DNA from: a phage
Length of the DNA: 64,000 nucleotides
Strand: one strand, 5' to 3'
Assembly: GCA_009015555.1 (NCBI GenBank)
Contig: GCA_009015555.1_3613.1
This document shows positions 2,983 through 59,801 of the stretch, piece after piece; position 1 is the stretch's first letter, and every line of letters starts with the position of its first letter. The notes beneath the pieces were generated by a model that saw only the letters and a list, made by a program, of their open reading frames with translations, was not told the DNA's origin and searched no databases. A program made the position numbers and the translations under genes.

Positions 2983-5900
2983 ATGGCACAATATGAAGAT
3001 AAGGTCGTGGAAGTTCTGGTGACTCTCCCGGAACCGTCTGCGAGCACCTCTGGTGGTTCTGGTGCGCCTTTCACGGGCATCGAAACCCAAGACACCGTAT
3101 CCACCACACTGATTGGTGATGGTACTCAATCCTCCCCTCTGCAAGCAAACATCAACATCTCCCGTCGTTCAGGAAACCGCCTCCAAGTGGTGAGCACCTC
3201 CAGTGAGCAGGGTCTGTATGTTGCTGGCTCCGACACCAAGGTGTCTGCTAAGGATGGGAACACCGTAACTTACATCTCCGCCCAAGATGCGGCTAACGCT
3301 GGCAACCCGGCCCTGGAAGGTGTATACTCTGATCCGGTGAACGTGTCAACCACGTCACCGAAGAAGACTCTGGAAATTAAGGCTGATCCTACCGGGAAAG
3401 CCAAGACCCAAATCGACGTGATCGTTGATCCAGATTCCATGAACGCCCTGAAGGTAGGCACTGCTGGCCTGAGCGTTCCTGTTTCTGTGGCTCAAGACAA
3501 CACTCTGGAAATCCGCCAGGGTGCTCTGTACGTCCGCCCGCAAGAGACTAAAATCTCCCAAGACCCAAACAACAAGATTCAAGTCAAGTCTGACGGGATT
3601 TACGTTGACACTGTAAAAGGTGATAAAGGTGATACCGGGGCAACTGGCCCGGAAGGCCCTCAAGGCCCACAGGGAGACCCGGGTCCTCAAGGTCCGCAAG
3701 GCCCGCAGGGCGATAAGGGTGATAAAGGTGACACCGGGGACGTAGGACCAGCGGGGGCAACTGGCCCGGCAGGGGCACAGGGTGCTCGTGGCCCAGAAGG
3801 TCCGAAAGGCCCGGCTGGTATTGGTATCAACGTCATCGATCAGCTTGACGAAGTTTCTCAGCTTCCGGCTGTTGCGGAAATGGAACTGGGCGACACTTAC
3901 GTTATTGGACAGAATTTCTGGACCGTTGTCAACGAAAACAACGTGAAGCAGTGGAAGGACATCGGTAACTTCGCGGGGCCTGAAGGTCTGTCTGCTTATG
4001 AAGTTGCAGAAGGCGCGGGCTTCGTTGGTACTGTTGATGAGTGGCTGGAATCCCTGAAAGGGGCTGACGGTATCGGTCTGCAAATTCTTGGTTCCTTCCC
4101 TGACCCGTCCTATCTGCCTGATGAAGGTAACAAGCCGGGTGACTGCTACATCATCCAAGACATGATGTATGTGTGGACAGGTGATGAAGATGGGTGGCAG
4201 ACTGTAGGTCAGATTGGCCCAGAGGGTAAATCTGCGTATCAGGTATGGCTGGCTAACGGTCACACCGGATCTCAGGTTGACTTTCTGAACTCCCTGGTTG
4301 GCCCACAAGGACCGAAAGGTGATAAAGGCGACAAAGGTGATACGGGTGCTGACGGTACTAACGCCAACGCCATCAACCTCTTGGGTAAAGTCGCAGACGA
4401 AGCGAGCCTCCCGGCTGGCGCGGATGCAGGCGATGCCTACCTGATCGGAACTAGCGTTTGGGTCTCCACTGGCAATGACAACTGGGAAAACCTCGGTGCC
4501 TTCCAAGGCCCTAAAGGTGATCAGGGGGATGTCGGCCCTGCTGGCCCGAAAGGCGACAAGGGGGACGCAGGTGACGTAGGCAAAGACAACTACGCATTGG
4601 CGGTAGAGAACGGGTTCCAAGGTTCCCTGAGCGACTACCTGGCATCTCTCAAAGGTGCGAAGGGCGACACTGGCCCGACTGGTCCGCGTGGTCTTACTGG
4701 TCCGCAGGGTGTGAAAGGTGACGCAGGGGAAGGTCTTGCGATCCTCGGATCAAAAGCTGATCCTTCAGAACTACCTTCCAATCCAGTAACTGGTGATGCG
4801 TGGCTGATCGGAGAAGACCTGTACATCTTCAACGGCACTGCTTGGGAGAATGCAGGCCCTGTCCGTGGTCCGAAAGGTGACACCGGAGCCACTGGCCCGG
4901 CTGGAGCTAAGGGTGACAAGGGTGACCAAGGCGAGAAAGGCGACAAGGGTGACCAAGGTGATGTCGGCCCGGCTGGCCCGGAAGGTCCGCAGGGGACTGG
5001 TCTGACGCCGAAAGGTTCTGTTCCTACAGTAGCAGATCTTCCTGACCAAGACAACACCAAAGGCGACTTCTGGGCTGTAGAGGAAGATGGCAATGGTTAC
5101 GCTTGGGATGGGTTGCAGTGGGTTGTTACTGGCCTGACTCGCGGCCCGCAAGGCGAGAAAGGCGACAAGGGCGACAAAGGGGATAAAGGTGATCCGGGGG
5201 ATACTGGTGCCACAGGCGCAGGTGTTATTCCGAAGGGAACTGTAACCTCTGCTGCGACCCTGCCTCCTACCGGGAACACCGTCGGTGATTACTACGTCAC
5301 TGAGGATACTGGGACCGGATACTCTTGGAACGGGACAACCTGGGTTGACTTGGGAGTTGTGCGTGGACCGCAAGGACCGCAGGGCGACAAAGGTGATACC
5401 GGAGACCAAGGTCCGCAAGGTGTGAAAGGTGACACTGGTGCTACAGGCCCTCAAGGCCCGCAAGGTGACATCGGCCCGGGCGTTGAGATCATGGGTAAAC
5501 TCAACAGCACCTCAGAACTGCCTTCAACCGGGCAACTGGGTCAGGGTTACCTGATTGACGGCGACTTCTGGGGATGGACTGGCTCTGCCTACGAAAACCT
5601 TGGACGTATCCAAGGCCCGGTTGGTCCTACTGGTCCTACTGGTGACCCAGGCCCTACGGGTCCGCAGGGTGTCAAGGGTGATAAGGGTGATCAAGGTTCC
5701 TTGTGGATCGTGTTCGACCATGACCCGGGTCCTGCTGATGGTCGTGTAGGTGACTACTTCCTTAACTCCTCAACGTTGCAGTTCTTCCGCAAGACGAACG
5801 CAACCACTTGGGCACCGATGGGTTACATGGGTGGCGGTAACGTTTACGATTCCCCGAAAGACGGCAAGCAGTACGCTCGTATCGACGGGGATTGGGAACT

Positions 5901-6264
5901 GGTCGAAGTTCTGGAAGCGCCTCAAGACAACGGCTACTACGTCCGTGCGAACGGTGCGTGGCAGAAACTGGATCGCTACGACCTGCGTGTCATGTCCGCA
6001 ACTGGCGCACTGGATGCTTCTGTATCCAACGTGTTCACCGTTGACGGAACCACGTCTAAGGCAATCACCATCTCCAACCTGCCAGCGGGTCGTGCGATGA
6101 CTGTGGTTGTTAAGTTCCTCGGTAAAGGTGGGTCCATGACTTGGCCTTCTCCGATGGCATGGTCTAACGGCACCCAGCCAGCACTTGGTACTACCCGTAC
6201 CATCCTGACGTTCTTCTGGGACGGCACGGACCTGACTGGTGTTCAGGCAATGACTGTAGACTAA
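2983..6264 (+). CDS. collagen-like fibre protein (multiple G-X-Y triple-helix blocks alternating with about 45-aa fibre repeats, C-terminal globular domain)
   Basis: Start moved to ATG at 2983 (RBS GGAG; N-terminus [11 protein letters not shown] resembles sheath-like gene at 11084); many [19 protein letters not shown]-type repeats; repeated LP..GD.Y/W..G..W....W.N.G modules. Confidence 0.8.
3604..5700 (+). repeat. tandem collagen G-X-Y coding repeats (ggtgataaaggtgacaccgg-type units)
   Basis: Repeated GGT GAY AAR GGY GAY ACY GG and CCN CAR GGN units visible across the gene. Confidence 0.7.
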
Positions 6265-6270
6265 TACCCC

Positions 6271-6290
6271 AAGGGGGCTTCGGCCCCCTT
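6271..6290 (+). promoter_or_regulatory. GC hairpin with UUCG tetraloop (AAGGGGGC-UUCG-GCCCCCUU), no U-tract
   Basis: Perfect 8-bp stem immediately after collagen gene stop; followed by RBS of next gene rather than a T-run. Confidence 0.4.
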
Positions 6291-6305
6291 CACAAGGAGA
6301 TTCAA

Positions 6306-6956
6306 ATGGCTGTAGATCCTACCAGCAAGGTTTATGCTTGGACACCGATGATTCGTTTGTCCGACATGAAATATCCTGTCTATCTTAGCGACTTCCTCAA
6401 AGAACATACTAACGTAAGTATTGGTTCTTACGTTTGGGAAAAGGACATGCGAGACCTGTGGGGTTATTGCATGGTTCATGATTCTGAAGTTCCTATTGGT
6501 GATGTGGTCACCGAAGGAAAACCGGAACTAAACGAAGAAGATGACCTGTGGTACAAGACTTGGGTTGCTCGTGATTTCTCCCCAGAAGAGATCGCAGAGA
6601 ACTTGGCCCGCGCCAAGGAAGATTATCGTACCCGTGCGTATCAGCAATATACCTCTGACCTTCAGTCGGGTGTGGCTGTTGACGGCGACGTTTTCTCTGT
6701 TGAACCACGAGAACTCCTGAACCTTGAACTGTCCAAAGCGTTTGCGTTTGCAAACTCTGAATCGGATGTTCTGATTCGCAAAGCTGATTACACAGTTTTG
6801 ACTCTACCGTCTGCGGATGCTGTTGTCAAGATTGATGAAATCCTGGCTGCAACTGCCAAGGTCCACCAGAACCTGTTGGCATACGTAAAAACTGTGTATG
6901 ACACCGAAGTCATCACAGACATCCCTGAAGTTCCTCAAACTTTCGTAGGAGAATAA
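6306..6956 (+). CDS. hypothetical protein (possible fibre assembly factor, by position)
   Basis: 216-aa ORF with RBS AAGGAGA; between two collagen-like genes. Confidence 0.55.
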   Translation: MAVDPTSKVYAWTPMIRLSDMKYPVYLSDFLKEHTNVSIGSYVWEKDMRDLWGYCMVHDSEVPIGDVVTEGKPELNEEDDLWYKTWVARDFSPEEIAENLARAKEDYRTRAYQQYTSDLQSGVAVDGDVFSVEPRELLNLELSKAFAFANSESDVLIRKADYTVLTLPSADAVVKIDEILAATAKVHQNLLAYVKTVYDTEVITDIPEVPQTFVGE

Positions 6957-6957
6957 C

Positions 6958-7269
6958 ATGGCAGCAATTGGCGGAGCATCCCTTGGTGTCCTGACTGGTT
7001 ACCAGATCATGGACCAAGCAACAGGAGAGAGCAAGACCATCTCTGAACTTTTTGCAGGTGGTGGCGGTACTCCCGGCCCGAAAGGTGACAAAGGTGATAC
7101 GGGAGACACTGGACCAGCAGGTCCAGCAGGCCCGGCGGGGGCAGCAGGTGCAGACGGTGTTGGAATCGCTGACATCGCAGCGGCTCGCTCAGGCGATACT
7201 GTAACTCTAACCTTCACCATGTCTGACTCTACAACGAAGACTGCATCTTTCGACCTTCCAGCCGCATAA
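6958..7269 (+). CDS. small collagen-like protein
   Basis: 103 aa; [34 protein letters not shown] block; RBS GGAGAA. Confidence 0.65.
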   Translation: MAAIGGASLGVLTGYQIMDQATGESKTISELFAGGGGTPGPKGDKGDTGDTGPAGPAGPAGAAGADGVGIADIAAARSGDTVTLTFTMSDSTTKTASFDLPAA

Positions 7270-7274
7270 TTAAT

Positions 7275-7296
7275 CCGCCCTTAGGGGCGGTTTTTG
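7275..7296 (+). terminator. rho-independent terminator
   Basis: CCGCCC-TTAG-GGGCGG stem followed by TTTTT. Confidence 0.55.
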
Positions 7297-7312
7297 TACA
7301 TAAGGAGACTGT

Positions 7313-8683
7313 ATGGGAACAATGAGGGGTATCACAGGGGAGCAGAACGGTGTATACTTCGGGTATGCACTTTACGATCTCGTTAACGAAAAACTTATCC
7401 CCTTTGACCAAATTGGCGAGGGGGGATCTTCTGTACCCGGCCCACAGGGTCCTCAAGGGGAGAAGGGGGATAAGGGAGACCCCGGTCCTCAAGGACCTCA
7501 AGGTGTCCAAGGAGAGCCGGGCAATCCTGGTGAACCAGGCCCTCAAGGGGAACAAGGCCCTCAGGGCGAGGCAGGGGAAATTGGTCCTCAAGGACCTCAG
7601 GGACCAGTAGGACCAACAGGCCCTCAGGGCGAGAAAGGGGAGAGGGGTGAACCAGGCCCTCAAGGTCCTGAAGGCCCTGCTGGCCCGCAAGGGGAACAGG
7701 GACCCGCCGGGGCAACAGGCCCCGTTGGACCTTCCGGTGCGACAGGTCTTGTATGGAGAGGGAACTATGATGATTCAGTCTCCTACGACGTTAACGATGC
7801 AGTTGGGTATCAGGGTGCCACATATTTCTCTACTCAGCCATCCACAGGTATCCCACCGGAATCTACTGGTACAAGGGTTAACGACCACTGGGCACTAATG
7901 GCCTCAGAAGGTGCGCCGGGACCAGTAGGTCCAGCAGGACCAACAGGCCCGCAGGGTTTGCAAGGACCAGTAGGACCCGCAGGGCCTTCCGGTGCGACAG
8001 GTCCTGCCGGACCCGCCGGACCACAAGGAGAGCAAGGCCCTCAAGGGCTACAAGGACCACAAGGTCAGCGAGGTATTCAAGGTGTTCCGGGTGAAAAAGG
8101 GGAAAAGGGAGATCAAGGACCAGTAGGTCCGGCAGGCCCTGCTGGCCCGCAAGGGGAACAGGGACCTCAGGGGGAGACTGGCCCTAAGGGAGATAAGGGT
8201 GACAATGCCCTCCCGACCATTTCTGGGATTTATGCCTCCCCGATCAACAAAACGAACTCTTGGATTCAACTCCCCGGTAACAACTTGGGGAATGTTCGTC
8301 TTATTCTCTCTGCAAACAACAATGTCTCTCAGACCCGAGTTGGTTTCTCCGCAGGAACTTCGTCAGTGGCGAAGAGGATCGGATTCTCTTATGCACTAAC
8401 AACAACTTACACGGACGTAAATCGTATTAAGACCGGGAGAACCGGCCCCACCTCGATCTCAAATACAGTAGTTTATCCGTCGGACTCTACTATCAACGTG
8501 GGGTTCGGCGACAAGGTAGTCCTTGTTGTTTTTTGCCACGACACCCTTGAAGCATGGGAAGTGACAGTGGCAGGGGTTGCCCAAAAAACTGCTGTGGGCG
8601 ACACAAGTGGGCGTTTGGCTGTACATGCAGTACAGATCTCCGGGGACAGTACGTTACTCACAGGTAATGTCTACAACCCATAA
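7313..8683 (+). CDS. collagen-like protein (two long G-X-Y regions, C-terminal globular domain)
   Basis: 456 aa; RBS AAGGAG; long [19 protein letters not shown] repeats. Confidence 0.75.
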
Positions 8684-16318: not shown

Positions 16319-16347
16319 CAAGGGGGCTTCGGCCCCCTTTTTTATTG
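16319..16347 (+). terminator. rho-independent terminator after tape measure gene
   Basis: AAGGGGGC-TTCG-GCCCCCTT stem followed by TTTTATT. Confidence 0.55.
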
Positions 16348-33828: not shown

Positions 33829-33844
33829 GGGGGCCGAAGCCCCC
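33829..33844 (-). promoter_or_regulatory. GC hairpin with UUCG loop (GGGGGCUUCGGCCCCC), no U-tract
   Basis: Perfect stem in intergenic region after gene 33857..34549. Confidence 0.4.
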
Positions 33845-42062: not shown

Positions 42063-42090
42063 ATATTACCAGAATGAATCTGGACGTCAA
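42063..42090 (-). promoter_or_regulatory. sigma70-like promoter (TTGACG, 16-nt spacer, TAATAT)
   Basis: Hexamers on minus strand between terminator and gene 41841..42035. Confidence 0.45.
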
Positions 42091-42104: not shown

Positions 42105-42131
42105 TAATAAAAAACCGCCCCGAAGGGCGGT
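42105..42131 (-). terminator. rho-independent terminator
   Basis: ACCGCCC-TTCG-GGGCGGT stem followed by TTTTTATTA on minus strand. Confidence 0.55.
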
Positions 42132-42757
42132 TATCTTTTCTTGGTTTCAATCTTGATTGAGCGCATCAAGCACCGGGAATGATACAGAGCTTGGTCTTGA
42201 GAACCGCCGATCATGAGATTAAAACTTGTCCCGTCTGCAAGATCTGGGATGGCTTTGTTGTTTATCGTTGGCGATCCATCAACAGTTACAGTGAGGCTCT
42301 TGTTAATAGACTCGAAGATTATCTCGTGATAAACACCTTTTGTCACGGCGGGGCCTGCATTGACCCTGCTGGAATTATACCACCAGTCAAGGTATCCGTT
42401 ACTCAGCATGTTGGCGATCCAAGTGCCAGACCCGTTTCCTTGAATAGATCTCCCCACAAATATCATTGGGTTTGTTGCCGCTGCCTTAACCTTCAGATTC
42501 ATGGTGATCTTCCAGTCATTGTTTAGCAGCTTGTCTGGGGTGGTCCCTCCGCTCAATGCCCCATCTCCAACAAAATCCATCGCTGGCAGGCCCTCGTCGA
42601 GAACCGTCGCGGATGTTCCGGCGGTCCTGTTGAACGTTATCCCGCGATCAGTGAATCCTGAGAATGTGCCCAAGGGATACTTGGTGAAGTCCAACTCGAA
42701 CCAAGTGCTGTACTTTTTCGGATCTCCGCCCCCCGGCAGTACCAACATCTCTTGCAT
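42131..42757 (-). CDS. N-tag family paralog B: ConA/LamG-like jelly-roll protein (N-terminus MQEMLVLPGGG)
   Basis: 208-aa ORF with RBS GGGGG; LamG-like pattern; shared N-terminal motif. Confidence 0.55.
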   Translation of the reverse strand: MQEMLVLPGGGDPKKYSTWFELDFTKYPLGTFSGFTDRGITFNRTAGTSATVLDEGLPAMDFVGDGALSGGTTPDKLLNNDWKITMNLKVKAAATNPMIFVGRSIQGNGSGTWIANMLSNGYLDWWYNSSRVNAGPAVTKGVYHEIIFESINKSLTVTVDGSPTINNKAIPDLADGTSFNLMIGGSQDQALYHSRCLMRSIKIETKKR

Positions 42758-42766
42758 ATTGCCCCC

Positions 42767-42791
42767 TAAAAGAAAAGGGGCCGAAGCCCCC
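42767..42791 (-). terminator. hairpin plus U-tract (GGGGGCUUCGGCCCC then UUUUCUUUU) between polymerase gene and paralog B
   Basis: Perfect stem with UUCG loop followed by T-run on minus strand; lies 5 nt downstream of predicted start site of the motif at 42803-42814. Confidence 0.45.
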
Positions 42792-42802
42792 GGAATACAA
42801 GC

Positions 42803-42814
42803 ATTTTACCACAA
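42803..42814 (-). promoter_or_regulatory. TTGTGGTAAAAT motif (candidate extended -10 promoter)
   Basis: Exact 12-mer also at 9371-9382 (plus) and 59785-59796 (minus). Confidence 0.3.
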
Positions 42815-42831
42815 ATGTGTAAAAATAGCCA

Positions 42832-45468
42832 TTAGTGACAATCTCCCCAGCTTGTGCCCGTCAGGTATTCACCTGTGATGTGGACTGGAGATTTCATCAT
42901 CTTAGCCGCCTGCTCCACGCACTTAACGACCATCTGCCCGACCGGGCAATGAATAATCGTGTACACGCCGTTCTCGTCCGGATCACACTTGAACTTACCT
43001 TCTTTCACACAGTGACCATCCAGAACCAGACCTTTCGCCAGGCACTGCTCAACAAAGGCTTTTGCGGTTGCCTCGTCGTTGAACTTCCATTCTTTCTTGA
43101 ACTTGTGCGGCACTTCAAGCTGGTATTCATCGTGGTAGTAGATGATACGGCGGACGCCTTCATCATACCAGCCACGCTTAACCAACTGCCAGTGCAGCAG
43201 GATACCGACCAGATCGAACAGTGCAGCACCGCCGTTCTGCTGGTATGCGTTCAGCAAGGAGTGTTTGGAGCGGGTGTAGATCTTACGACCATCGAGGCCG
43301 TAGATAAAGCGTTTCCCGGTCAACTCCCAGAACTTCTCAAGTGCTTCTTTACGACCTTTCAGACCGATGTTGCTATCCCAGAATGCGTCGATTACCGCCT
43401 GAGCCTTGTCGAGGGAAATACCCAACATGGAGGCGATCTTCGCGGCCTGGGCACCGTACATGATGCCGTATGTCACACCCTTACCTTCACCACGGGAAAC
43501 CTTCTTACCCGCCGCTTTGGTATACGCTTCAGCGTTTCGGCTGTGGGCGTCACCTGATTCCATGATCCGGAGATATGCCCCGCCGTCGAACTCGTAGGCA
43601 CCCCATGCTGCGATCATACCTTCGAGGTTTGAGCCGTCGATACCAACCTGATATTTCCCTTCAGATGCCCGGAATAAGCCACGCATCTCTTTACCCAGTA
43701 AAACCTTCTCGTCTGGTTTAGGGACGTTAGCCACGATTGTGTGCTTACGTCGCCCGGTGTTGGTGATCCCAGAATAACGCGCCGGGAGTTTACCGTCAAT
43801 ACGCAGTCGTGGGTGGTTCAGCCATCCTGTGTCAACCTTGTCTTCCTTGAGCGGGTCAAGTACAGAACGACGGTTACGCAGAGACAGCCACTTCACGATC
43901 TGCTTTGCCATATGACCGTCAACCTTCTCCAAGTTCGGACACAGGCCGCTCATATCTTTCAACTGCGGAGACGTAGGCAGGCCACGGGCCTTACGTCGCA
44001 ACAGCTTGTACATCTTCTCTTTGTCCTGCCACGCCTTCGGGGTGATGCCGAGGTATTCCAGAATAAGATCCCGGTATTCAACTTGGTCCAACTGCTCAAT
44101 GTACTCACGGACAAGCCCATCGACCTCGTTATCGGGGCGTTGTTTCTTAAACTGGTCCTTCGTCACATCCTTACTGCGCCACAGGGTTGGCTTCCAGCCT
44201 GCATCACGGATAAGGAACTTCTTCACGTCATCTTGGTTACCGATACGCATCGGAATCATAATGTCCGGCATGGTTTGGTTCTTCAGATCCAACATTGCCC
44301 GTGCCATGTCCTCTGGTGAGAGAGGGATCAGGGTCGTTTGCTTGTTGTTCTGGTCCCGGATAAACTGCGGCATCGCTGCCTCATCCTCGACACCATGCTC
44401 ATTGCAATACTTGATTGCTGCCGCCGTCAGGCTACCATCGGCCTTGAAAGACTTCGCCGGGGGACCCTTAAAGTCGAGTGCCTCCCAGTTGACATTATAC
44501 CCCAACTTCTCCAGCCACTTCCACCCAGTCCCGGACAAAGATCCATCGCCCTTGAACGGCTTAGAAGGGAAGGTCGGTTGTGCTGACTTCGCCATCTCTT
44601 TCTTCGGGAGATGGGGTTCAACATCTCCCTCGATCTCTCGCATCATTTGATCGATACGGTCACGAAGTTTAAGTGCCGCCTCTTCGTCGAAAGATACGCC
44701 CTGAATCTCCTGCTCAATCATCAGGTAGTCTGTCAGCATACCACGACGCATGGCATTCTTCCAGTTGATCAGCTTGTACTTCTTGGCGTCCTTATCCTTA
44801 TCTTCATCCTTGTACATGAAGCGTTTGTCATCTACCAGCTTGCCGTCGCAGGCGATCTCCTCCATGAGGGCCGTCCACACCATTTCGTTGATGATAACGT
44901 CTTCGATGATACGATCACAATACTTCCACAGCGGCAGGCCACGCCAGTCTTCGATTGCCACTTTCTGGTTGGCAACACGCATACCCCACGCCTCTAAGCC
45001 GTGAGGGCCGACAGGTTTCATCTTCCCGGTGACCGGGTTCTTTACCATCTCCGGACACCCACGAGGAAGCGGTCGGTCTGGATAAAGAGTTCGAGACATT
45101 GACAGAGTGTCGAACAGGTTAACCTGCTTGCCGTTCAGGGTGCCCATGCACTTAGGGTCGCCGAACATATCATACTGTGTTCCCAACATCTTTTTAAACA
45201 GACGAAGGTCGTAGCCGAACAGGTTGTGGATCGCGATGGATTTAGGCTCCGTCTTGAACCAATCGTTCAACTCCTCAAAGGTACGAATTTTGAAATTCTT
45301 GCCCTTCGATTGGATAAATTTCAACGCCTGATCGTACCCTTCCCGGTTGGGGTCGAGGAAGATATTCCAGTTATCGACCTTATACTCCTTGAACAGGATC
45401 ACGTGAAGCTGGTCTACTTCTTCGAGCAGACCATTGGCTTCAGCATCCCCTACAAACAACCCTTTCAT
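42832..45468 (-). CDS. DNA polymerase, family A, with 3'-5' exonuclease domain
   Basis: Track ORF 42832..45495 starts at GTG; ATG at 45468 has AAGGAG; N-terminal exonuclease motif VGDAEANGL; C-terminal KxxxYG..YG region and HDE motif typical of family A polymerases. Confidence 0.85.
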   Translation of the reverse strand: MKGLFVGDAEANGLLEEVDQLHVILFKEYKVDNWNIFLDPNREGYDQALKFIQSKGKNFKIRTFEELNDWFKTEPKSIAIHNLFGYDLRLFKKMLGTQYDMFGDPKCMGTLNGKQVNLFDTLSMSRTLYPDRPLPRGCPEMVKNPVTGKMKPVGPHGLEAWGMRVANQKVAIEDWRGLPLWKYCDRIIEDVIINEMVWTALMEEIACDGKLVDDKRFMYKDEDKDKDAKKYKLINWKNAMRRGMLTDYLMIEQEIQGVSFDEEAALKLRDRIDQMMREIEGDVEPHLPKKEMAKSAQPTFPSKPFKGDGSLSGTGWKWLEKLGYNVNWEALDFKGPPAKSFKADGSLTAAAIKYCNEHGVEDEAAMPQFIRDQNNKQTTLIPLSPEDMARAMLDLKNQTMPDIMIPMRIGNQDDVKKFLIRDAGWKPTLWRSKDVTKDQFKKQRPDNEVDGLVREYIEQLDQVEYRDLILEYLGITPKAWQDKEKMYKLLRRKARGLPTSPQLKDMSGLCPNLEKVDGHMAKQIVKWLSLRNRRSVLDPLKEDKVDTGWLNHPRLRIDGKLPARYSGITNTGRRKHTIVANVPKPDEKVLLGKEMRGLFRASEGKYQVGIDGSNLEGMIAAWGAYEFDGGAYLRIMESGDAHSRNAEAYTKAAGKKVSRGEGKGVTYGIMYGAQAAKIASMLGISLDKAQAVIDAFWDSNIGLKGRKEALEKFWELTGKRFIYGLDGRKIYTRSKHSLLNAYQQNGGAALFDLVGILLHWQLVKRGWYDEGVRRIIYYHDEYQLEVPHKFKKEWKFNDEATAKAFVEQCLAKGLVLDGHCVKEGKFKCDPDENGVYTIIHCPVGQMVVKCVEQAAKMMKSPVHITGEYLTGTSWGDCH

Positions 45469-45557
45469 ACTCTCTCCTTTTTGGCATACCTCCACTCAGG
45501 ATAGCCCAATGCCTCGTAAAGATCAACCTATCAATACCCGTCCTTGGGTGAATAATC

Positions 45558-46274: not shown

Positions 46275-46453
46275 CAGCCCTCCAGTTTAACCATGCACGA
46301 ACCGCTTTTCCATTTGCTTACGGTGCCCAGAACTTCGACCTTGGCCTTGTTCCCTTTGATCTGGCGGATGATCCCACCCTGAAGCTCATTGTAGCCCCAA
46401 TAAATAGCCACCTTGTCGCCCTCTTTAAGAGGGGTCCCACGATAATCAGTCAT
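46274..46453 (-). CDS. small hypothetical protein (59 aa), not in ORF track
   Basis: ATG overlapping preceding mini-ORF stop; stop overlaps start of paralog C and supplies its RBS. Confidence 0.3.
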   Translation of the reverse strand: MTDYRGTPLKEGDKVAIYWGYNELQGGIIRQIKGNKAKVEVLGTVSKWKSGSCMVKLEG

Positions 46454-46538
46454 TATGGTTCCTTATGTCCATGATGTACATGACAACACAAAGGAGGCCC
46501 ACGGCCCCCAAGAAAACTAAACCAAACCAATCCGGCAT
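46446..46538 (-). CDS. mini membrane peptide (30 aa), not in ORF track
   Basis: MPDWFGLVFLGAVGLLCVVMYIMD...; start overlaps stop of gene 46538..47005. Confidence 0.2.
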   Translation of the reverse strand: MPDWFGLVFLGAVGLLCVVMYIMDIRNHND

Positions 46539-52540: not shown

Positions 52541-52555
52541 GGGGCCGAAGCCCCG
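52541..52555 (-). promoter_or_regulatory. GC hairpin with UUCG loop (GGGGCUUCGGCCCC), no U-tract
   Basis: Perfect stem immediately after primase-helicase stop. Confidence 0.4.
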
Positions 52556-56577: not shown

Positions 56578-57935
56578 ACCTCACCTCCAAAAATTTCAGG
56601 GAATGTCTCATGATAGAACTTACGGACACCTTGGTCAACAATAATGTCCTTCACACGTAGGCGCTTCATCAGGCGAAGACCTTCGGTGCTCGTCGCTCGG
56701 GACAGCATAACATAGGCTTGGCCCGGCGTGAAGGTGCCGAAACCTAAATCAATGTTCACTTTACCCAGCGTCAGGCCCTGTGCTTTGTGTCCGGTGATAG
56801 CATAGCCCAATTTGAACGGGAACTGCAAGTATTTCCCGATCTCTTTGTCAACCAGTACGGTCTGCTTCTCCATCACCTTGACAGTCTGCTTGGTGCCGTC
56901 TTCCAGTTCGATCTCCTTTTCAACCTGGACCATCTTTTCTTCCGGGACCTGTGTCACGTTGGTCCACTCGTACTTGCCGATGTGGATCGGCTTTCCGTCA
57001 ATGTCCACGATGACAAAAGTCTTGGCGATTTTCTTGATGATCCCCACCGTACCGTTGACGTAATCTGGCTCCTTTTTCTTCTGGTCGTTGTCGTTAACAA
57101 CAATCATGACCTTCAGACCTTCTTTCAGGTTCAGAACTTCGTTGACCGGACGCTCCGGGAACTCGCCCGAGATCTTGGCTTCGAACACATGAGGCTGGGC
57201 CTTGATCTTCTCAAACTCCCGCTGGTTGATTTCCTCTGCGAGTTTGTTGGTGGTCGTTAAAGTCACCGCCCCTGGCAGGGCCGGGCCGAAACAGTGTTGG
57301 TTGAAGTAATCAACCGCCGCCCCGACGTTATTACCCACACGGATGTTGTTCAGGTGTTGAGCGAACACAGGATCAGACTGGCGGTGTACCTTCGGAAGAT
57401 ACGCATTGGTAAAATCCAGTTGGTTCCAAATATCCGAACCGAACGGGATTTCATTGCCGTGCAGTTCACGGAACATCGCCGTCTCTTCGCGCTTCAGAAC
57501 AGGCTTGATCTGGAAACCGTCGCCAAACATGATGACCTGAAGGCCACCGAAAGGCTTGTTTACCTTGCGGTGATAACGCAGCTTCATGTCGATCTCCCGC
57601 AGCTTGTCGCTACGAATCATGGAGATTTCGTCGAACACGATAGCGTCCAGCGCATTAGATGCCATCAGCATCGCAGGCTTCTTGGACTTCGCTTTGTAAT
57701 CTTCCTTGGTGGTAACACCAAACGTCAGACCAAAAGCCTTGTGAGCGGTGATCCCTGAAATGTTCAGCGCCGCAATCCCTGTCGGTGCAACGAACAGGAA
57801 ACTGTCAGCGAAGAACTCACGCAGAGTGGCAATCATCAAGCTCTTGCCAGATCCACCTGGCCCGGTGATGAACACGTTATCACCCGCCATGATGGCTCGC
57901 ATTGCTTCTTCGTTACCAATTACTGTTTTACCCAT
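56574..57935 (-). CDS. SF1B DNA helicase (PIF1/RecD/Dda-like)
   Basis: 453 aa; Walker A GPGGSGKS, Walker B VFDEISM. Confidence 0.8.
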   Translation of the reverse strand: MGKTVIGNEEAMRAIMAGDNVFITGPGGSGKSLMIATLREFFADSFLFVAPTGIAALNISGITAHKAFGLTFGVTTKEDYKAKSKKPAMLMASNALDAIVFDEISMIRSDKLREIDMKLRYHRKVNKPFGGLQVIMFGDGFQIKPVLKREETAMFRELHGNEIPFGSDIWNQLDFTNAYLPKVHRQSDPVFAQHLNNIRVGNNVGAAVDYFNQHCFGPALPGAVTLTTTNKLAEEINQREFEKIKAQPHVFEAKISGEFPERPVNEVLNLKEGLKVMIVVNDNDQKKKEPDYVNGTVGIIKKIAKTFVIVDIDGKPIHIGKYEWTNVTQVPEEKMVQVEKEIELEDGTKQTVKVMEKQTVLVDKEIGKYLQFPFKLGYAITGHKAQGLTLGKVNIDLGFGTFTPGQAYVMLSRATSTEGLRLMKRLRVKDIIVDQGVRKFYHETFPEIFGGEV

Positions 57936-58120
57936 TACGCCTCTGCCTCAAATTTGGTGGTGCCAATGATTTTGGCCTCACTGATTTCAATATTCGTGTG
58001 GCCTTTCTTTGCCAAACGGCTGGCCTTCAGTGTTGCCGCCTGCGGATCGTCAACTTTGGCGCGAACGCTTTGACCATAACCCGCATCGGATGATACCAGA
58101 AAAACAGACTTCTCTTCCAT
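57935..58120 (-). CDS. hypothetical protein
   Basis: 61-aa ORF with RBS AAGGGGAG. Confidence 0.5.
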   Translation of the reverse strand: MEEKSVFLVSSDAGYGQSVRAKVDDPQAATLKASRLAKKGHTNIEISEAKIIGTTKFEAEA

Positions 58121-58897: not shown

Positions 58898-59299
58898 TCA
58901 AGCCTTTTTGGAGGCTTGAGCGAGAACTCCCTTCTTAACATCTTCCCAAAGAGAATTGAGGAAAGGGTCGTTGGTGATCACGTCGGCATACCAAGGGCCG
59001 TAGATACGGTACACGGAATCGACGGTGATCGCGTACAAATGCCCAGAATGGACGGCAAGGCCAGTCACGTAGCCAGTACGCACTTGGGTCCCATCCTTAC
59101 CTGTCTTCCGGCGCTTCGCCTCATTGAACTCGATATAACCTGTCAATGTGACAATCTTCTCCGGGACCTGAAGATCCGGGAGTTTTTCGTGGCTAAGGAC
59201 CTGATTCCCAGATTTACATCCCTCCAGGCACAGATTTCCGCCGTACTTCTTCCCGTACTTACGGGCAAACTCAGCCATTTTGATCGTGGACAATTTCAC
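58898..59299 (-). CDS. hypothetical protein
   Basis: 133-aa track ORF (GTG start; alternative ATG at 59278 would give 8-nt overlap with macro gene). Confidence 0.45.
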   Translation of the reverse strand: MKLSTIKMAEFARKYGKKYGGNLCLEGCKSGNQVLSHEKLPDLQVPEKIVTLTGYIEFNEAKRRKTGKDGTQVRTGYVTGLAVHSGHLYAITVDSVYRIYGPWYADVITNDPFLNSLWEDVKKGVLAQASKKA

Positions 59300-59801
59300 T
59301 CTCCTTCAGAACATAAATGGTCACATCGAAGTCTCTCAGGCGACCTTCAATCATCCGAGATATGATACCCCAATCGCCACCTGCGAGTCCAGCCCCTATT
59401 TTTGGTAGCCCGATACGAAGGTCTTGGGTACTCATATCCAGAGTACGACACTTGGCATGGAGAGATACCGCCATTGCAGACAGGGCCGAACGCAATGCCC
59501 AGTAATCGAGGTCCATCTTACCCTCTCTGCGCCCGGTGAAGGTGTATTGACCGTACAGATTGTAAACCAGTAAACCATTTTTGCAGAAGGCCGACGACAA
59601 AGTTCCCAGTTTAGCCCGATCACCACGGGTGGTCATTTGGTCTGCCGTCCACGCTTCCGGAAAAGCTGACGCAATCTTTGGGGCAATACCAGACTTCATG
59701 GTATTCATGCAGTTACAGCAGTGGGCTATCACGTTTACCTCTCCAGCCTGCGCCGCAGAGATCAGATCGCCCACACGGTATGTCATTTTACCACAAGGCA
59801 T
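59271..59801 (-). CDS. macro-domain-like (ADP-ribose binding or processing) protein
   Basis: Track ORF 59271..59882 trimmed to ATG 59801; VNVIAHCCNCMNTMKSGIAPKIASAFPE near N-terminus and GLAGGDWGII near C-terminus resemble macro-domain motifs. Confidence 0.45.
   Translation of the reverse strand: MPCGKMTYRVGDLISAAQAGEVNVIAHCCNCMNTMKSGIAPKIASAFPEAWTADQMTTRGDRAKLGTLSSAFCKNGLLVYNLYGQYTFTGRREGKMDLDYWALRSALSAMAVSLHAKCRTLDMSTQDLRIGLPKIGAGLAGGDWGIISRMIEGRLRDFDVTIYVLKESEIVHDQNG
59785..59796 (-). promoter_or_regulatory. TTGTGGTAAAAT motif inside 5' end of macro gene (candidate internal promoter)
   Basis: Third exact copy of the 12-mer. Confidence 0.25.

Follow-up and report, generated by a model that had tools for sequence, protein, structure and literature searches.

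Based on sequence comparison with related phages, we found that the 74-nt intergenic region downstream of the DNA polymerase gene joins two standard signals of rV5-like phages, a putative promoter and a terminator-like hairpin, in the less common order, with the promoter first. We consider the region to be ordinary punctuation at the head of a variable gene slot and not a new control device. In the reading that we prefer, to which we give about an even chance, the hairpin would be a weak terminator that closes the polymerase unit, and the motif upstream of it an extended -10 promoter of the late type.

By its sequence, the window (the whole stretch of 64,000 nt of phage DNA analysed here) belongs to a Certrevirus, subfamily Vequintavirinae (rV5-like myoviruses); a 2-kb query around the 74-nt region was about 98% identical to Pectobacterium phage PcCB7V and to Cronobacter phages CR3 and CR8. 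The gene order on the minus strand is family A DNA polymerase, the 74-nt gap, a 208-aa gene and a 64-aa gene, with the following features.

42832..45495, minus strand: family A DNA polymerase (pol) gene, from the ORF list, with the annotation DNA polymerase in PcCB7V, CR3 and other genomes
42834-42832, minus strand: pol stop codon TAA, opening the 74-nt intergenic region (sequence)
42826..42831, minus strand: -35-like TGGCTA, matching TTGACA at 3 of 6 positions, with a 17-nt spacer to the -10 (sequence and alignment)
42803..42814, minus strand: 12-mer TTGTGGTAAAAT, candidate extended -10 element (sequence; match to rV5 P056)
42811-42803, minus strand: TGG-TAAAAT, with TG at 42811-42810 and TAAAAT at 42808-42803 (sequence)
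42802-42792, minus strand: 11-nt spacer between the -10 and the stem (sequence)
42796, minus strand: predicted start of transcription at an A, 7 nt 3' of the -10 (spacing rule)
42776..42791, minus strand: hairpin GGGGGC-UUCG-GCCCCU (folding; terminator scan)
42790-42777, minus strand: hairpin core of five G-C/C-G pairs, to which a closing G-U pair is added, with a C(UUCG)G tetraloop at 42785-42782
42768..42776, minus strand: U-run TTTTCTTTT, 8 of 9 positions T, abutting the stem (sequence)
42762..42767, minus strand: Shine-Dalgarno (SD) sequence AGGGGG, 4 nt 5' of the ATG (sequence)
42757, minus strand: ATG of the 208-aa gene (sequence)
42131..42757, minus strand: 208-aa gene ('paralog B' of the preliminary description), the sole gene of the slot here (ORF)
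42113..42132, minus strand: canonical strong terminator AACCGCCC-UUCG-GGGCGGUU followed by U6, closing the slot (terminator scan; -15.1 kcal/mol)
42063..42090, minus strand: canonical sigma-70 promoter TTGACG-16-TG-TAATAT of the 64-aa gene at 42035-41841 (sequence and scan)

Direct reading of the minus strand confirmed the arrangement given in the preliminary description, namely the motif, 11 nt, the hairpin with its U-run, the ribosome binding site (RBS) and the start of the gene. The description had also stated that a transcript started at the motif would open with the hairpin almost immediately, and this agrees with the predicted start: by the rule for the spacing between the -10 and the start site of sigma-70 promoters, transcription would begin at A42796, so that 5 nt of the transcript would precede the hairpin. 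At its other end the slot is closed in the usual order, with the terminator at 42132 followed by the promoter at 42090, and this TTGACG promoter is kept in KaOmega, F1M1E, P7_Pc, POP15 and PBES02. The 208-aa protein has a ConA-like/laminin-G domain (Pfam Laminin_G_3, 1.7e-6; PHROG 13196, 2.5e-39), and its gene is restricted to CR3, CR8, PcCB7V, POP15-18 and, at 52% identity and a few genes downstream of pol, Seunavirus KE22.

The exact 12-mer occurs three times in the 64 kb (9371 on the plus strand, 42814 and 59796 on the minus strand), each time intergenic and directed at the next gene. The shorter form TGNTAAAAT was found ten times in the window compared to 1.46 ± 1.11 expected, and none of 100 shuffled sequences reached ten; in the structural module, motifs of this type lie 20-35 nt 5' of start codons. 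The copy at 42803-42814 is identical to the putative late promoter P056 of rV5 (TTGTGGTAAAATA; rV5 Table S4), and it has both a TGn directly 5' of a TAnnnT hexamer and a match, in TGG-TAAAAT, to TggTAaAAtA, the MEME motif found upstream of late genes of rV5 and proposed as a late promoter (Kropinski et al. 2013, PMC3606486). The label 'late' comes from this single MEME analysis in rV5, and about 4 of the 15 TGNTAAAAT sites of PcCB7V lie outside the structural module. Our promoter scan did not report the motif at 42814 because its -35 matches at only three of six positions. For promoters of the extended -10 class, neither a good -35 nor contact with it is required. Given the match to the rV5 late promoter, the enrichment, the intergenic position and the conservation described below, the motif at 42814-42803 is very probably a real promoter element of the extended -10, putative rV5 late type.

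The phage relies on the host polymerase. Early promoters of Certrevirus have been described as -35-dependent, with the form AAAA-N3-TGTTGAC-N19-TATAAT. From general knowledge, an extended -10 type would fit a switch away from such promoters. To our knowledge, rV5-like phages have no late sigma factor and no T4-like activators, and a literature search for transcriptomes or transcript maps of Vequintavirinae gave nothing relevant. The third copy of the 12-mer (59785-59796, minus strand) follows the stop codon of a 70-aa ORF and lies about 50 nt 5' of a GTG start with the RBS GGAGAGG. The ORF located 3' of it (59271-59732, minus strand; VIAHCCNCMNTMKSGIA...) looked macro-domain-like by eye, and on that reading the late-type motif would serve genes other than structural ones as well.

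The hairpin at 42791-42776 has six pairs and folds at -11.5 to -11.8 kcal/mol, with 80% of the ensemble in this structure, and it was also reported by the terminator scan of the window. Its anatomy is that of an intrinsic terminator, with a G/C-rich stem of six pairs (five of them G-C/C-G), a UUCG loop and, abutting the stem, the U-run UUUUCUUUU, which reaches 42768 on the minus strand. The four canonical terminators of the phage (42132, 38428, 52000 and 19918) fold at -15.1 to -16.9 kcal/mol and have stems lengthened by A/U pairs, whereas the post-pol hairpin has five to six pairs and no A-tract. From this difference in energy, stem length and A-tract it is reasonable to infer that the hairpin is a weak or partial intrinsic terminator.

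The 14-mer GGGGCTTCGGCCCC at the core of the hairpin occurs five times in the window, compared to 0.02 copies expected, and all copies are intergenic, in the sense orientation and just 3' of a stop codon. Neither the promoter motif nor the hairpin is a chance match. A U-run follows two of the five copies (16323 and 42790-42777), whereas the other three lead directly into the next RBS. The hairpins at 16323 and 6274 fold at -16.0 kcal/mol. The copies that have no U-run lie between stop codon and RBS at 6274-6287 (plus strand), 33830-33843 (minus strand) and 52541-52554 (minus strand), and look like intercistronic hairpins and not like canonical terminators. As three of five identical copies are of this kind, the hairpin may do something else than terminate transcription; candidate roles of the copies with no U-run are in RNA stability, in processing or as a recombination linker. 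The direct-repeat output for the window was dominated by long 9-nt-periodic GGN-CCN-NNN repeats (collagen-like Gly-X-Y) in the tail-fibre genes at 3600-8200 on the plus strand.

The complete genome of PcCB7V contains 15 TGNTAAAAT sites, three of which have a terminator 20-22 nt upstream, in the usual order. Only one, the site downstream of pol, has a hairpin and U-run downstream, and the whole module of promoter and hairpin is unique in that genome. The same order was found in rV5 at 57924-58034 on the minus strand (locus L070, 925-1035), where the stop codon of the large terminase gene is followed by TGTGGTACAAT (P064), 20 nt, the hairpin GCCCUC-UGAC-GAGGGC with UAUUUUGUUAU (t064ABC), an RBS and the GTG of ORF64, a gene that several related genomes list as portal. 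The rV5 paper lists P064 and t064ABC separately and does not discuss their order (PMC3606486). This terminase-portal region is kept in 119 Vequintavirus genomes (rV5 and 118 related ones). Because presumably essential late genes follow it, the promoter-then-terminator order is compatible with downstream expression.

A scan of IMG/VR for the exact module (TTGTGGTAAAAT-N6-16-GGGGCTTCGGCCCC) gave no matches. A looser scan (TAAAAT-N8-20-GGGGCTTCGGCCCCTT) gave 51 matches, none with a genuine TGnTAAAAT, so that they were not taken as relatives; mostly or all, they are ordinary terminators a few bases past A/T-rich gene ends, the stop codon often being TAA. We also rejected a terminator-like sequence at 46509-46493, upstream of 'paralog A' of the preliminary description, as it lies inside a possible 30-codon ORF and forms no comparable module. 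This possible ORF (46445-46537, minus strand; MPDWFGLVFLGAVGLLCVVMYIMDIRNHND) is hydrophobic and overlaps the stop codon of the upstream gene and the start of a 59-aa gene.

The module is present in PcCB7V, CR3 and CR8 (97%), in POP15, POP17 and POP18 (80%), in PBES02, and in a far more divergent form in CR9. The 14-mer of the hairpin was identical at 14 of 14 positions in all five orthologues aligned, and hence there is no covariation for the stem. The promoter core was retained at nine of nine positions in the orthologues, with CR9 at eight of nine (TGTTAAAAT), and the 12-mer is identical in PcCB7V, POP15 and PBES02. Every orthologous module has a -35-like TGGnnA at the 17-nt spacing. The U-run is retained in four of five orthologues (TTTTATTTT in POP15, TTTTCTTTT in PBES02) and degraded in CR9 (TTATTTTCG; 5 of 9 positions identical). 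In CR9 the spacer between the -10 and the hairpin is identical at only 2 of 15 positions and is 4 nt longer, and the SD region is identical at 3 of 10, so that the predicted distance from start to stem is about 8-9 nt there, compared to 5 nt in the window. Both elements and their order are thus retained in three diverged lineages while the flanks diverge, and this conservation next to changing bases in the CR9 alignment indicates that they are under constraint.

The preliminary description had assigned the module to the control of one gene, 'N-tag paralog B', and this assignment did not hold. In the window, CR3, CR8 and PcCB7V the module is followed by the 208-aa laminin-G-domain gene, and in POP15 by the 208-aa gene, a 65-aa gene and a 363-aa gene; in PBES02 and CR9 a gene of 65-67 aa comes first and the 208-aa gene is absent. 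As a different gene follows the same module in these two phages, the module is the head of a variable slot and not specific to the paralog. The slot is old and differentially lost, since the KE22 homologue lies downstream of pol in another genus. A recent insertion of the laminin-G gene with its own leader was rejected, as the leader precedes another gene in PBES02 and CR9 and the homologue is present in KE22.

A number of otherwise unlike proteins of the slot and its vicinity have similar N-termini of the form M-[QLK]-E-[MIL]-[LM]. Examples are the 208-aa protein (MQEMLVLPGGGDP; 42757, minus strand), a 238-aa protein (MQEMLIVASKPG; 46274, minus strand), the KE22 homologue (MKELLLVNNPKDP) and the 65-67-aa proteins of PBES02, POP15 and CR9 (MLEIMMGGSKP, MLEILMGGSKP and MLELLTIG, respectively); in relatives the form was found at L004 2579, L005 2581 and 3209, L009 3617 and L007 3501. 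In POP15 the first ~20 nt are alike between two adjacent slot genes, and the precise removal of the 208-aa gene in PBES02 could have come about through such similarity at the 5' ends.

A stem-loop lies directly 3' of the pol stop codon across the subfamily, also where the promoter motif is absent. In GAP31 the pol TAA is followed after 6 nt by the identical 14-mer GGGGCTTCGGCCCC and an RBS, with neither U-run nor promoter motif; in KE22 by GGGGGCTTTGCCCCC and then an RBS, again with no promoter motif; and in Hena1 by GCCCTTCGGGGC and then a T-run. The post-pol hairpin of Vequintavirus 'nom' is CAACAC...GTGTTG. In ChuuTotoro and the slot-less Certreviruses KaOmega and F1M1E, 4-6 nt separate the pol stop from a strong terminator, and slot-bearing Certreviruses have about 40 nt, with the promoter motif, between pol stop and hairpin. 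KaOmega and F1M1E show the pol stop, 6 nt, a CCGCCC-UUCG-GGGCGG-U6 terminator and the TTGACG promoter, a pair that corresponds to the one 3' of the 208-aa gene in the window. By these comparisons, the primary association of the hairpin is with the end of the polymerase unit.

In P7_Pc, A7_1 and CB7 a gene directly follows pol, with no promoter or hairpin. The post-pol genes of P7_Pc and CB7 are HNH endonucleases, and the unannotated gene of A7_1 has a near-identical N-terminus (MVYGKGI...). Inserts after pol were located at L002 3998-4507, L008 2496-2999 and L066 1958-2443, and the position is a hotspot for differing inserts. HNH genes also interrupt pol itself in several Certreviruses (PBES02, CR9, phiTE and CB7).

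In our preferred reading, the hairpin with its U-run would terminate most of the transcription that comes through pol, as the local form of the post-pol stem-loop of the subfamily. Between the pol stop and the hairpin, TGGTAAAAT would act as an extended -10 promoter and add transcription of the slot, probably late. As the hairpin lies 3' of this promoter, RNA begun there would itself run into the terminator, and only the fraction that reads through would continue. The read-through RNA would bear the hairpin about 5 nt from its 5' end, where it may slow decay. It counts against this reading that a promoter placed ahead of a terminator loses part of what it transcribes, unlike a purely functional design.

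It is unlikely, in our view, that the motif is inactive at this site, with the slot read only from pol and the hairpin serving as the 3' terminator or stabiliser of pol. The poor -35, the absence of the site from the promoter scan, the succession of pol, hairpin, RBS and gene with no motif in GAP31 and KE22, and the promoterless post-pol genes of P7_Pc, A7_1 and CB7 are all consistent with such a silent motif. However, TGnTAAAAT is kept at a fixed spacing from TGGnnA in three diverged lineages in which neighbouring bases have changed, all three exact 12-mers are intergenic and correctly oriented, and extended -10 promoters manage without a good -35. We rate somewhat lower the idea that the hairpin chiefly stabilises the slot mRNA at its 5' end or directs its processing and does not terminate transcription, the U-run then aiding translation, for example by binding ribosomal protein S1. 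The retention of the U-run in four of five orthologues speaks against such a role, as does a position equal to that of the post-pol terminators of relatives; moreover, late promoters in the usual order yield transcripts that have no 5' hairpin, so that late mRNAs generally seem to need none. A stabiliser would nevertheless suit the short predicted distance from start to stem in both the window and CR9, and the three identical hairpins that lie between stop codon and RBS with no U-run suggest a role at the RNA level; stem-loops of the ompA 5' UTR type are known to stabilise E. coli mRNAs.

The preliminary description had suggested attenuation. In such a scheme, transcription begun at the motif would stop at the hairpin except when a phage factor, or a late polymerase that has been modified, allowed it to pass. 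The succession of promoter, terminator and genes would agree with this, also ahead of ORF64 of rV5 (portal), which must be expressed, and given that order late complexes could ignore such hairpins. However, the anatomy offers no support for regulated attenuation or antitermination, as an alternative structure cannot fit into the 5 nt before the stem and there is no leader peptide. A permissive Rfam search (E<=10) gave no match in 42758-42831, its weak matches all falling on the canonical terminator at 42105-42140. The other motif sites of PcCB7V have no downstream terminator, and the hairpin is weak, so that unregulated leakiness would suffice for expression; we thus regard this explanation as improbable. 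A related proposal, to which we give slightly less credit again, is that the hairpin is a temporal gate, which would stop early and middle transcripts from pol and pass complexes from the late promoter, these being termination-resistant or aided by a phage factor. If this were true, one hairpin would separate two expression classes, and likewise between terminase and portal in rV5-like phages. It is scarcely credible that the short terminated RNA itself (~25-29 nt, hairpin and U-tail) is the product, as a decoy for a hairpin-binding factor or Hfq. Promoter, 5 nt, hairpin and U-run would make a complete minimal transcription unit, and the hairpin sequence is repeated in phage mRNAs, but the idea is pure speculation with no precedent in the group, an RBS and gene follow directly, and the rV5 analogue has another hairpin sequence. 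We also tried a translational switch, in which the 3' arm and the U's pair with the SD sequence (GCCCCUU/AGGGGGC, -12.3 kcal/mol), as they can when the 5' arm is absent. When the folded sequence began directly 3' of the -10 and so included nucleotides ahead of the predicted start, this pairing was even the minimum-energy structure, whereas from the predicted start the terminator hairpin outcompetes it, and no process that would remove the 5' arm is evident. The switch was dropped because any C-rich arm complements an SD.

Of known systems, the P064/t064ABC pair of rV5 and the PeSL cassettes of T4-like phages come nearest. In the rV5 pair, too, a single intergenic region carries a late motif, a hairpin with U-run and an RBS, and the gene follows. 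The pair differs in its locus (terminase-portal and not pol-slot), in its unlike hairpin sequence and in the 20 nt between -10 and stem, compared to 11 nt in the window. Intrinsic terminators with C(UUCG)G tetraloops are frequent between phage genes. The hairpin resembles them in its G/C stem, its C-G-closed UUCG loop and the U-run directly 3', but unlike the other terminators of this phage it is shorter and weaker, has no upstream A-tract and lies about 5 nt from a predicted start.

PeSLs of T4-like phages (Arbiol et al. 2010, PMC2839356; Comeau et al. 2014, PMC4122927) are composite promoter/stem-loop cassettes in which a strong early -35/-10 promoter has AT-rich sequence upstream and the stem-loop as a rule overlaps the two promoter boxes or falls between them. 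The module shares with them a host-type promoter, a G-run/C-run stem-loop, an SD sequence and a start codon, as well as a slot whose genes are gained and lost among closely related phages. Unlike in a PeSL, the promoter is of the extended -10 type with a -35 matching at three of six positions, and the stem-loop lies past the predicted start, its first base 12 nt from the -10. The slot is variable and the hairpin is repeated five times; the deletion junctions of the slot share only CTTCGG. The module resembles a PeSL to some degree in how it would work, but it does not belong to that class.

With the PR'-tR' arrangement of phage lambda the module has only the order in common, in that a terminator stands between a late promoter, here a putative one, and the genes that it serves. 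In lambda the terminator lies ~190 nt downstream of PR', and the Q-binding and pause sites are within the promoter region; nothing like them is visible in the window, and the arrangement occurs at only one of the 15 motif sites of PcCB7V. The stable hairpin a few nucleotides from the predicted 5' end also resembles an ompA-type 5' stabiliser. Known 5' stabilisers have no following U-run and are not terminators, and with 5 unpaired nucleotides ahead of the stem (8-9 in CR9) the module reaches or exceeds the limit that is generally given for 5' protection. Finally, the slot is like a lambdoid moron in that an accessory gene, provided with a promoter of its own and closed by a terminator, stands between core genes, but unlike a moron it is old and differentially lost and has an extra hairpin between promoter and gene.

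If late complexes ignored promoter-proximal hairpins, this would give new insight into the late switch of rV5-like phages, although nothing in the present data requires it. The value of the finding is mainly for annotation, in that a probable late-type promoter and a weak terminator can be placed inside the replication gene cluster of CR3/PcCB7V-like phages. The region after pol is a variable slot, of which the promoter and hairpin at the head are conserved while the genes behind them come and go.
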